DNA from: a virus
Reading direction: 5' to 3' (one strand)
IMG/VR virus record: IMGVR_UViG_3300045988_180547
Length of the DNA: 41,334 bases
In this document: piece by piece, positions 2,668 to 3,829 of the stretch
Layout of the letters: the number at the start of each line of letters is the position of its first letter
Position numbering within the stretch: position 1 is the first letter of the stretch
Notes under the pieces: model-generated
What the model was told of the DNA's origin: nothing
What the model saw: only the letters and a program-made list of their open reading frames with translations
Databases searched by the model: none
Translations under genes and position numbers: made by a program

Positions 2668-2685
2668 ATTTAAAAATTTCTGTCC
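2668..2685. repeat. 18-bp inverted repeat, left arm (atttaaaaatttctgtcc) of the invertible tail-fibre segment
   Basis: Perfect reverse complement of 3636..3653. Confidence 0.8.
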
Positions 2686-2686
2686 A

Positions 2687-3169
2687 TTTAAAGTAGGAGA
2701 TATCTACTTAACTACCAATTCAACTAACCCATCTAGTATCTTTTTAGGCACTACTTGGCAGAAAATCGAAGGTAAATTCCTAATGGGTACTTCTGGAAGT
2801 GGAGCTAGTAAAGCCACTGGTGGAAGTAACTCTAGGACTATTGTTCAAGCTAACTTACCTAATATAAAATTAGCTGTTGATAGCTTTAGTTTATCAAGAG
2901 GTACTCAAAATATTACTGGTTCGGCTGACACTTGGACATATCAGAGTGAAACAATTTCAAGTGGAGCTCTTTATTTCAGTGGAACTGGAAAACGAAACTA
3001 CAATGTTAATGGAGGTTGGTCAGGAACTAGCTTAAAATTAGATGCTTCAAAAACTTGGACAGGAAGTACAAACTCTGTATCTCCTCAAACATCAACCTTG
3101 GGAAGTGGACAAGCTCTTGATATTACACCTAGCTACTACACTTGTCATATGTGGCTAAGATTAACTTAA
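2687..3169 (+). CDS. silent alternative tail-fibre C-terminal cassette (start-less, expressed only after inversion)
   Basis: Open frame from the IR at 2668 through 3169 encodes KNFCPFKVGDIYLTTNSTNPSSIFLGTTWQKIEGKFLMGTSGS...KLAVDSFSLSRGT...SKTWTGSTNSVSPQT...MWLRLT, co-linear and about 40-50% identical to the C-terminal 164 aa of 3161..3829. Confidence 0.7.
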   Translation, partial: FKVGDIYLTTNSTNPSSIFLGTTWQKIEGKFLMGTSGSGASKATGGSNSRTIVQANLPNIKLAVDSFSLSRGTQNITGSADTWTYQSETISSGALYFSGTGKRNYNVNGGWSGTSLKLDASKTWTGSTNSVSPQTSTLGSGQALDITPSYYTCHMWLRLT

Positions 3170-3829
3170 TCTTTTCCATATGTTGACTACTAAATAAGGT
3201 GGAAGTATTGAAAATGGAGTTCCTTTTCCTAGATTAACAGTCTGAGGTTGAGCTGTATTAGTAGTTCCTGTCCATGAACGTGAAGCTCGAAACTTATAAA
3301 AGGGTTTATTAGCAAACGATGCTGAACCATTACCATACTTTGTTCCTTCAGTATAAAAAGCTCCAGAAAAATCAGAGGACGTATCAATAACACCTAAATC
3401 ACCATTAATTTCCATAGTACCTCTACTTAACGAGAAACTATCAAGTTGGATTTTAGTAGCTGGGAGATTATCTCCTATTAATTTTACTGTACTAGCTCCT
3501 CCAGTAGTTCCTAATCCATAAGATGAACTACTACCCAGTAAAAACCTACCTTCTTGCTTAGCCCATGTAGTACCTAACCATAAAGTTGAGGGATTTTCAT
3601 TACCTAGTGAAAGATATAGTGAATTTACTGGGAAAGGACAGAAATTTTTAAATGTCTCGCTAATTCCTTCAATTAAAGGATTATAATATCCCATTAAAGC
3701 AGCTACAAGAGCATCAATACTATCATAATCTACTAACTTTTTCCCAATAGATTTTTCTAATGCCATAGTATCTATTTCATTTATCTCTAATTGTTGTTTA
3801 ACTAAGTTTATTTTTTCTTTTAAACTCAT
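3161..3829 (-). CDS. tail-fibre receptor-binding protein with switchable C-terminal domain
   Basis: Constant N-terminus (aa 1-58) upstream of the IR, variable C-terminus inside the invertible segment; G/S/T-rich fibre-tip sequence. Confidence 0.7.
   Translation of the reverse strand: MSLKEKINLVKQQLEINEIDTMALEKSIGKKLVDYDSIDALVAALMGYYNPLIEGISETFKNFCPFPVNSLYLSLGNENPSTLWLGTTWAKQEGRFLLGSSSSYGLGTTGGASTVKLIGDNLPATKIQLDSFSLSRGTMEINGDLGVIDTSSDFSGAFYTEGTKYGNGSASFANKPFYKFRASRSWTGTTNTAQPQTVNLGKGTPFSILPPYLVVNIWKRLS
3636..3653. repeat. 18-bp inverted repeat, right arm (ggacagaaatttttaaat)
   Basis: Perfect reverse complement of 2668..2685; lies inside tail-fibre gene 3161..3829 at codons for FKNFCPF. Confidence 0.8.

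Follow-up and report, generated by a model that had tools for sequence, protein, structure and literature searches.

The genome studied here (the window, 41,334 nt) is a circular contig whose first 55 nt are identical to its last 55 nt, and it is a complete circular Fusobacterium phage genome. Between positions 2668 and 3653, the variable part of a tail-fibre gene faces a second, start-less cassette of the same kind. The features of this region, and two further genes that bear on its behaviour, are the following:

1359 to 1676, minus strand: conserved gene of 105 aa; in relatives, the recombinase gene lies directly after it
1695 to 2630, minus strand: conserved gene of 311 aa, just downstream of the switch, with no Pfam or PHROG match
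2668 to 2685, plus strand: crossover site on the silent-cassette side, ATTTAAAAATTTCTGTCC, equivalent to slot s2 of four-site relatives
2686 to 3169, plus strand: silent, start-less cassette of the FKVGD type (Pfam Gp10_C, 3.2e-13), with its stop codon at 3167-3169
2686 to 3635, no strand: invertible core of 950 bp holding the two convergent cassettes
3161 to 3635, minus strand: variable cassette of the FPVNS type, expressed
3161 to 3829, minus strand: expressed tail-fibre / receptor-binding protein gene of 222 aa (Pfam Gp10_C, 1.3e-10; PHROG families)
3636 to 3653, minus strand: crossover site in the expressed gene, exact reverse complement of ATTTAAAAATTTCTGTCC, slot s1
3654 to 3829, minus strand: constant N-terminus of the fibre gene
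25038 to 25829: RuvC-like resolvase
39409 to 40428: tyrosine integrase of the lambda type, 339 aa, the sole site-specific recombinase in the genome

The whole element, from 2668 to 3653, is 986 bp long. A first, sequence-only reading of this DNA had placed perfect 18-bp inverted repeats at its two ends, and both their coordinates and their reverse complementarity turned out to be exact. A repeat finder can extend the pair to 28 nt at 86%. The exact 18-mer is present in two copies in the whole genome and no more, and when up to 3 mismatches were allowed 3 matches were found against 0.46 expected, a number that none of 100 shuffled sequences reached. The site count is thus exactly two, against four in relatives, and falls short of that of a multi-site shufflon. 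The right copy lies, as had been described, within the tail-fibre gene at the codons for FKNFCP, in such a way that it spans the last base of codon 59, the FKNFC codons and the first two bases of the P codon; the constant N-terminus ahead of the shared FKNFCP has 59 aa, and not the 58 aa first given. From the left copy, the frame of the silent cassette stays open all the way to its stop codon, so the alternative frame without a start that had been noticed there is intact. Silent and expressed cassettes are co-linear and similar, with 43% identity over 166 aa in place of the roughly 45% of the earlier estimate, and, being convergent, they share 9 nt at their ends (3161-3169), again as described. 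When the segment was inverted in silico, an in-frame fusion of 225 aa was produced.

The product of the fibre gene matches tail protein, tail collar fibre and tail fibre families in PHROG, and the gene is located after Baseplate_J and Mu-gp48-like genes and before the lysis genes. Together with the Gp10_C domain, these matches and this position make a receptor-binding fibre or baseplate tip protein a reasonable assignment. A monomer model of the fibre made with AlphaFold was of poor quality (mean pLDDT 57.6, pTM 0.28). Positions 1-8000 of the genome gave no match to a phage collection by megablast, and a tblastn search of the fibre protein against phages gave a weak Vibrio phage match only, with nothing close.

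The predicted fusion is present in public data. A protein of 225 aa (P0001), with 100% identity to it over 100% of its length, is encoded on at least 82 public contigs (NCBI, Logan, ENA), and the 222-aa form of the genome itself was found, exact, on 13 contigs. In contigs L006-L011 and L013 the 950 bp between the 18-mers are exactly inverted, with 99.3-99.4% identity to the genome, and their flanks are 99-100% identical to it upstream and around 95% downstream. Contigs L002 and L012 have opposite orientations and show 0 mismatches over flanks of 4000 and 3300 nt; L012 also has a different allele of one cassette. As for the cassette pair of the genome itself, all the contigs in orientation A carry one allele and most of those in orientation B carry another, the two being separated by 6 SNPs, all of them within the variable middle of the FPVNS cassette. 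Because these alleles differ, the same allele was never seen in both orientations, so that inversion of this pair may be rare, and frequent flipping is not proven by it. A second cassette pair was found in both orientations in the same recombinase-less backbone (L046, on a long-read contig of 2.54 Mb, and L054, a JGI contig), with 1 SNP in the 938-bp segment, 1 in 2375 nt upstream and 0 in 349 nt downstream. The two sets of isomers, L002/L012 and L046/L054, thus point to at least two independent and recent inversions in backbones like that of the genome. The breakpoints between isomers lie exactly at the repeats, both in backbones of the genome's type and in the four-site relatives. We have little doubt that the element is a genuine inversion switch of the shufflon family. 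The earlier claims that the segment is invertible and swaps the C-terminus of the tail fibre, and that inversion fuses the constant N-terminus in frame to the other cassette, are supported by P0001 and by these near-identical prophages.

Some relatives carry a larger arrangement that includes a recombinase. In L028, an IMG/VR contig, four copies of the site (at 82+, 1065-, 3442+ and 4401-) accompany four cassettes, and between sites 2 and 3 there is an ORF of 318 aa together with homologues of the 105-aa (87%) and 311-aa (97%) genes. The 318-aa protein (rec318) is a tyrosine recombinase (PF00589, 3.7e-20) with a SAM-like core-binding domain and no arm domain, and its best matches in the PDB are XerA, a XerC-like protein and XerD. 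A 93% homologue of it (P0136), annotated as a tyrosine-type recombinase/integrase of an uncultured Fusobacterium sp., is encoded on the long-read contigs L040-L045, all at one common host locus. The order in these contigs is the constant region, s1, cassette A facing cassette B, s2, a 301-aa gene, a 104-aa gene and the recombinase, followed by s3, cassette C facing cassette D, s4 and the lysis genes. In recombinase-bearing relatives the homologue of the 311-aa gene is found with the recombinase, between sites s2 and s3, and the same 18-mer is found at the border of every cassette.

The cassettes held by the slots of L040-L045 differ between samples, at the same prophage locus: IPLGG and YLVGD are exchanged between L040 and L044, and FPVGS is at s3 in L040 and at s4 in L045. 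The whole block from s2 to s3 is inverted in L028 with respect to L040-L045. In metagenome 3300029521, contig L035 ends in the constant region, the site and the cassette that is found at s4 of L028, and L028 begins with the 80-nt constant sequence of L035 joined to another cassette, so that two isomers coexist in one sample. Contig breaks at the site (L028, L034/L038, L035) were also considered as evidence of heterogeneity, and only the L035/L028 pair was clear-cut.

Smaller layouts were found as well. Neither the recombinase nor the 311-aa and 105-aa genes are present in L021 and L031, two contigs with two sites each. The silent cassette of L021 is followed directly by the s4 flank and the lysis genes, as expected from a deletion between direct sites; both contigs look like the products of site-by-site deletion. 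Cetobacterium and Clostridium MAG loci (L023-L025) have a single site and no silent cassette. The layout of the genome, with two sites, without recombinase and with the 311-aa and 105-aa genes kept, is shared by L002-L013, L029, L030, L033, L046-L049 and L052-L056, and, judged by these contigs, it is common and well preserved.

Copies of the site were gathered by the amino-acid motif F[KR]NFCP, a procedure that is unbiased for codon choice, and 46 distinct contexts were obtained. The codons TTT, AAA, AAT and TTC are invariant in all 46 distinct copies, and the Cys codon is TGT in 43 of them and TGC in the other 3, whereas nearby residues that are invariant or nearly so change their codons freely (Asn, 24 AAT and 19 AAC; Pro, 16 CCA, 15 CCT and 12 CCC; Phe, 14 TTT and 10 TTC). 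Immediately before the motif an A was found in all 47 contexts, and further out both sides are unconserved. Since the codons of the site are fixed while their neighbours vary synonymously, the 18-mer is a DNA site beyond a conserved peptide, and by this measure of codon choice it is under constraint at the DNA level across distant phages. Conservation stops at the edges of the 18-mer, which is asymmetric, unlike the 26-bp dyad-symmetric sites of the gix/cix/hix type, and a comparison with gix and hix showed no resemblance, in agreement with the first reading. The rare TGC codon is a T/C variant at position 15 of the site; it is present at s2 of L040, at s1 of L044 and in L021, and it accompanies the YLVGD cassette and not the outer flank. 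As the variant moves with the cassette, the crossover is mapped 5' of position 15.

These data also bear on the possibility that general or phage homologous recombination, or template switching between short repeats, inverts the segment with no site-specific enzyme involved. The phage does encode functions of this kind, namely Gp157, an RNase_T-family exonuclease, an SSB and the RuvC-like resolvase. However, all the breakpoints are at the 18-mer despite the existence of longer homologies between cassettes (in L028, 83 nt at 81% and 72 nt at 85%), and relatives carry a dedicated recombinase. Since no breakpoint falls in these longer homologies, and since distant phages have kept the site, we consider this mechanism extremely improbable.

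The 55-nt terminal overlap implies that the entire phage genome was covered by the search for recombinases. A Pfam scan, which took in the ORFs of 90 aa or more other than some antisense ones nested inside these genes, detected no Resolvase domain, and six-frame tblastn of Gin and Hin against the genome returned only noise at E>1. The absence of a Gin/Hin/Cin-type serine recombinase reported by the sequence-only reading was thus reproduced. No homologue of rec318 was found in the complete genome by six-frame tblastn, the only match being to the catalytic domain of the integrase (26% identity over 141 aa, E=0.007). Downstream of the 105-aa gene, where relatives encode the recombinase, the similarity to L028 ends at the stop codon of the gene, indicating that no recombinase remnant is present there. 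No site-specific recombinase other than the tyrosine integrase was found, as the first reading had stated. Given that the dedicated tyrosine recombinase is absent here and present in relatives, the genome is an orphan copy and not a member with a complete system.

As the only site-specific recombinase of the phage, and one from the same superfamily as the shufflon recombinases, the integrase could itself perform the inversion, acting at an 18-bp site unrelated to its att core; if true, one enzyme would govern lysogeny as well as the switch of host range. From the attL, attR and attP junctions of integrated copies, the att core, TATCTTCCCCA, was placed at genome positions 45-55; it contains a 7-bp dyad (ATTATCT/AGATAAT) but shows no convincing similarity to the site ATTTAAAAATTTCTGTCC. 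Moreover, the recombinase encoded next to identical sites in relatives is only distantly related to the integrase, whose organisation is of the arm type (a weak match to Arm-DNA-bind_4), unlike that of shufflon enzymes. For these three reasons the integrase is a very unlikely driver. The first reading had offered as drivers either the phage integrase, with chemistry like that of tyrosine-recombinase shufflons, or a host invertase in trans; the tyrosine-shufflon likeness and the action in trans hold up, and the integrase, with an unrelated att core and 26% identity to rec318, loses ground.

The absence of the recombinase gene from the complete genome implies that flipping has to be catalysed in trans. 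Global invertases that act in trans include Mpi of Bacteroides and RecV of C. difficile. A chromosomal, non-prophage host invertase of another family could in principle flip the segment in the same manner, considering that no recombinase is encoded in cis and that gut bacteria are known to have global invertases of this kind (discussed in PMC6109161). Against this, the fetched loci, which total 703 kb and take in host flanks, hold the site nowhere but at the starts of tail-fibre cassettes, and a dedicated recombinase accompanies the exact site in sibling phages; we regard a host invertase of this class as highly improbable. The enzyme would more likely come in trans from a sibling prophage than from the host as a generic invertase. 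A search of genome contigs for a close host genome gave only 7 distant loci, and between protein clusters bearing rec318 and those of the genome type neither the sample accessions nor the lengths of the longest contigs overlapped, among those listed.

The best explanation, and in our opinion a likely one, is that the element is a shufflon with two sites and two cassettes, devoid of recombinase and flipped in trans by the recombinase of a sibling phage. The element is the minimal form of a family of tail-fibre shufflons of Fusobacterium and Cetobacterium phages, and it serves to exchange the Gp10_C-type receptor-binding C-terminus of a fibre protein of 222 or 225 aa. In the full form there are four cassettes, each preceded by the asymmetric ATTTAAAAATTTCTGTCC, with the arm-less, Xer-like enzyme of 318 aa encoded between the cassette pairs, which it would shuffle. 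Adjacency and co-occurrence suggest that the rec318 family acts on the 18-mer. Strand exchange is predicted within the first 14-15 nt or so of the site, in such a way that the constant N-terminus of 59 aa would be joined in frame to whichever cassette faces it. In the genome, the catalyst would most likely be the recombinase that a sibling phage with an identical site brings in, as a co-resident or by co-infection, and without an enzyme supplied in trans the segment would be locked. That its switch is flipped in this way by the rec318 family at present is, on these sequence comparisons, a reading that we favour with somewhat less confidence.

The main competing view is that of a frozen relic, in which inversions happened only in ancestors that carried the recombinase, or in recombining relatives, and the orientation is now fixed. 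A complete genome without recombinase is compatible with it, and so are the 6 SNPs that separate the A and B contigs of its own cassette pair and the existence of recombinase-less deletion derivatives such as L021 and L031. Nevertheless, two independent pairs of isomers with near-zero divergence (L002/L012 and L046/L054) occur in backbones that lack the recombinase, the frame of the silent cassette is undisrupted and the two sites match perfectly, and the recombinase-less layout is common and well preserved, all of which makes a relic unlikely.

Of the systems described so far, the Rin shufflon, known from prophages of Bifidobacterium and Eggerthella, comes closest by analogy. In Bifidobacterium prophages, a Xer-like tyrosine invertase acts with an 11-bp asymmetric rix site, TTCCCTAACCC, and the cassettes are C-termini of receptor-binding proteins (PMC6109161); the system was later found in prophages of Eggerthella lenta (PMC8778435). 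A separate inverted locus without recombinase was also reported, for which service in trans was proposed (PMC6109161). The likeness to Rin lies in a phage-encoded, Xer-like, arm-less tyrosine recombinase beside the cassettes (here in relatives, and matched by description and not by sequence), in short asymmetric repeats at the junction between the constant N-terminus of a receptor-binding protein and its variable C-terminal cassettes, and in natural isomers that break at the repeats. On the other hand, the phage described here has hosts in the phylum Fusobacteriota and a contractile tail of the myovirus type, its receptor-binding protein has a Gp10_C fold and not a TP901-1-like one, its site is the 18-bp ATTTAAAAATTTCTGTCC instead of the 11-bp rix, its cassettes come in convergent pairs, and its genome lacks the dedicated recombinase entirely.

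The shufflon of R64 and other IncI1 plasmids is a pilus adhesin system in which the Rci recombinase acts at sfx sites to exchange the C-termini of pilV. The sfx repeat is around 19 bp long and asymmetric, with only one side conserved. The element described here resembles it as a member of the tyrosine-recombinase family of multiple inversions that swap C-terminal segments of adhesins, and also in that conservation is confined to the 18-mer, with unconserved flanks. It differs in that a phage fibre is affected and not a plasmid pilus, in that the sequences of the sites are unrelated, and in that deletion products between direct sites (L021, L031) seem to occur here. When rec318 was compared by tblastn with 72,556 plasmids (90 records), neither Escherichia nor Salmonella was among the ten organism names listed, a further 12 records falling under nine other names, and rec318 probably does not match Rci at E≤1e-3.

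The G segment of Mu with Gin, the C segment of P1 with Cin, e14 with Pin and p15B with Min, the last being a multi-site system, depend on serine recombinases, encoded by an adjacent gene, that act on 26-bp dyad-symmetric sites with the help of a Fis-dependent enhancer. All four share with our element that inversion joins a constant fibre N-terminus to alternative C-termini, the logic of a host-range switch. By contrast, no serine recombinase is found here, the site is asymmetric and the relatives encode a tyrosine recombinase. The presence of this Xer-like tyrosine recombinase beside the same sites in relatives points to a system of the Rin/Rci type rather than of the Mu G/P1 C type, so that from the first reading, which had invoked the logic of Mu G, P1 C and R64 together, the C-terminal swap is retained and the assignment to a family is narrowed.

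No description of a Fusobacterium phage shufflon was found in the literature searched. The present data extend receptor-binding protein shufflons with a tyrosine recombinase of the Rin type from prophages of Actinobacteria to phages of Fusobacteriota, and for the latter they define the site, the repertoire of cassettes and the family of the recombinase. The kind of system is known, and the twist is a complete phage genome that has the switch without the enzyme. If the preferred explanation holds, its host-range switch would be outsourced to the recombinase of a sibling prophage, which represents a dependency between phages; a switch that looks functional without its enzyme, together with near-identical genomes in both orientations, makes such service in trans by a sibling prophage concretely testable. 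Phages of Fusobacterium are being considered as tools against tumour-associated fusobacteria, and a hidden host-range switch would matter both for the prediction of host range and for phage design.

Two published Fusobacterium phages, Funu1 (KR131710) and phiRTG5 (OR492272), encode homologues of rec318 with 48-49% identity that are annotated as integrases. As in the relatives described above, the gene is located between the lysis genes and a tail-fibre gene accompanied by small ORFs in reverse orientation, and inverted repeats connect the fibre gene with these ORFs, although the sequences of the repeats and the fibre proteins are different. By homology and gene order, the so-called integrase genes beside the tail fibre of Funu1 and phiRTG5 are probably invertases.

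The proteins of 105 aa (window 1359-1676) and 311 aa (window 1695-2630) have no family in Pfam or PHROG, and both carry the C-terminal motif PS-ALxxFKNxFN. In the relatives that encode the shufflon recombinase, the Xer-like tyrosine recombinase of the sibling phages, both genes sit together with the recombinase gene on the block between site slots s2 and s3, and in one of these relatives (L028) the whole block is inverted.

Two loci have only two sites, and lack the recombinase as well as the 311-aa and 105-aa genes:

L021, 10286-11400: two-site locus
L031, 3978-4934: two-site locus

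In both, the outer flank is the same as the s4 flank of the four-site relatives, an arrangement as would be expected for a deletion between directly oriented sites, in such a way that the recombinase gene itself would be taken out by the event. In a sibling prophage detected in several samples (L007-L011; for example, L007 1-4405), a 270-aa gene and then the tape-measure gene come immediately after the antirepressor gene, the head, sheath and tube genes being absent from this interval. This prophage seems to have arisen by deletion, with the tail-fibre switch retained.

The variation between alleles of the two orientations was located in the cassette expressed in the window (FPVNS): all 6-7 SNPs that separate A- and B-orientation alleles fall at window 3318-3464, the central variable part of this cassette (segment positions 172-318), and no difference was found between them in the silent cassette (FKVGD). 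In a further relative, L012, 88 positions differ in the FPVNS cassette. The clustering of the SNPs and the divergence of L012 point to diversification or exchange at the level of the cassette.

Homologues of the shufflon recombinase, 48-49% identical and annotated as integrases, are encoded by two published Fusobacterium phages at the following putative invertase loci:

Funu1 (KR131710; L050), 4976-7951
phiRTG5 (OR492272; L051), 5337-7948

In both phages the homologue lies directly after the tail-fibre gene and a set of reverse-oriented small ORFs, ahead of the lysis genes, and inverted repeats connect the fibre gene to these ORFs. Both loci are probably unrecognised invertase systems that use different sites.

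The window begins and ends with the same 55 nt (1-55 and 41280-41334), which shows that the contig was assembled as a circle and that the phage genome in it, around 41,279 bp in length, is complete. When integrated copies were compared, the att core, TATCTTCCCCA, was placed at window 45-55, within a 7-bp dyad (ATTATCT/AGATAAT). The prophage is flanked by a cation-ATPase gene and, on its other side, by the phosphoribosyltransferase side of a cluster of pyrimidine-biosynthesis genes. The integrase is adjoined by a variable island:

36451-39268: C5 cytosine methylase, GmrSD_N-domain protein and HEPN protein

Sibling prophages with an identical integrase carry an HSDR_N-domain protein in place of this island (compare L014 and L018 4765-5853).

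A further inverted repeat and a near-match to the site were detected in the window:

18937-18956 and 37851-37870: second perfect inverted repeat, 20 bp, ATTTAAAAATTTTTCCATTT
34958-34975: sole other near-match to the shufflon site, 3 mismatches, ATTTAGAAATTTCTCTCA

The first 12 nt of the 20-bp repeat are the same as those of the shufflon site, and its arms lie 19 kb apart, within the Mu-F-like head gene and the GmrSD-like gene respectively; this repeat is probably due to chance in AT-rich DNA. The near-match, probably coincidental too, is located in the part of the immunity region that separates the antirepressor and HTH genes; its minus-strand sequence, ATGAGAGAAATT..., is a putative gene start.
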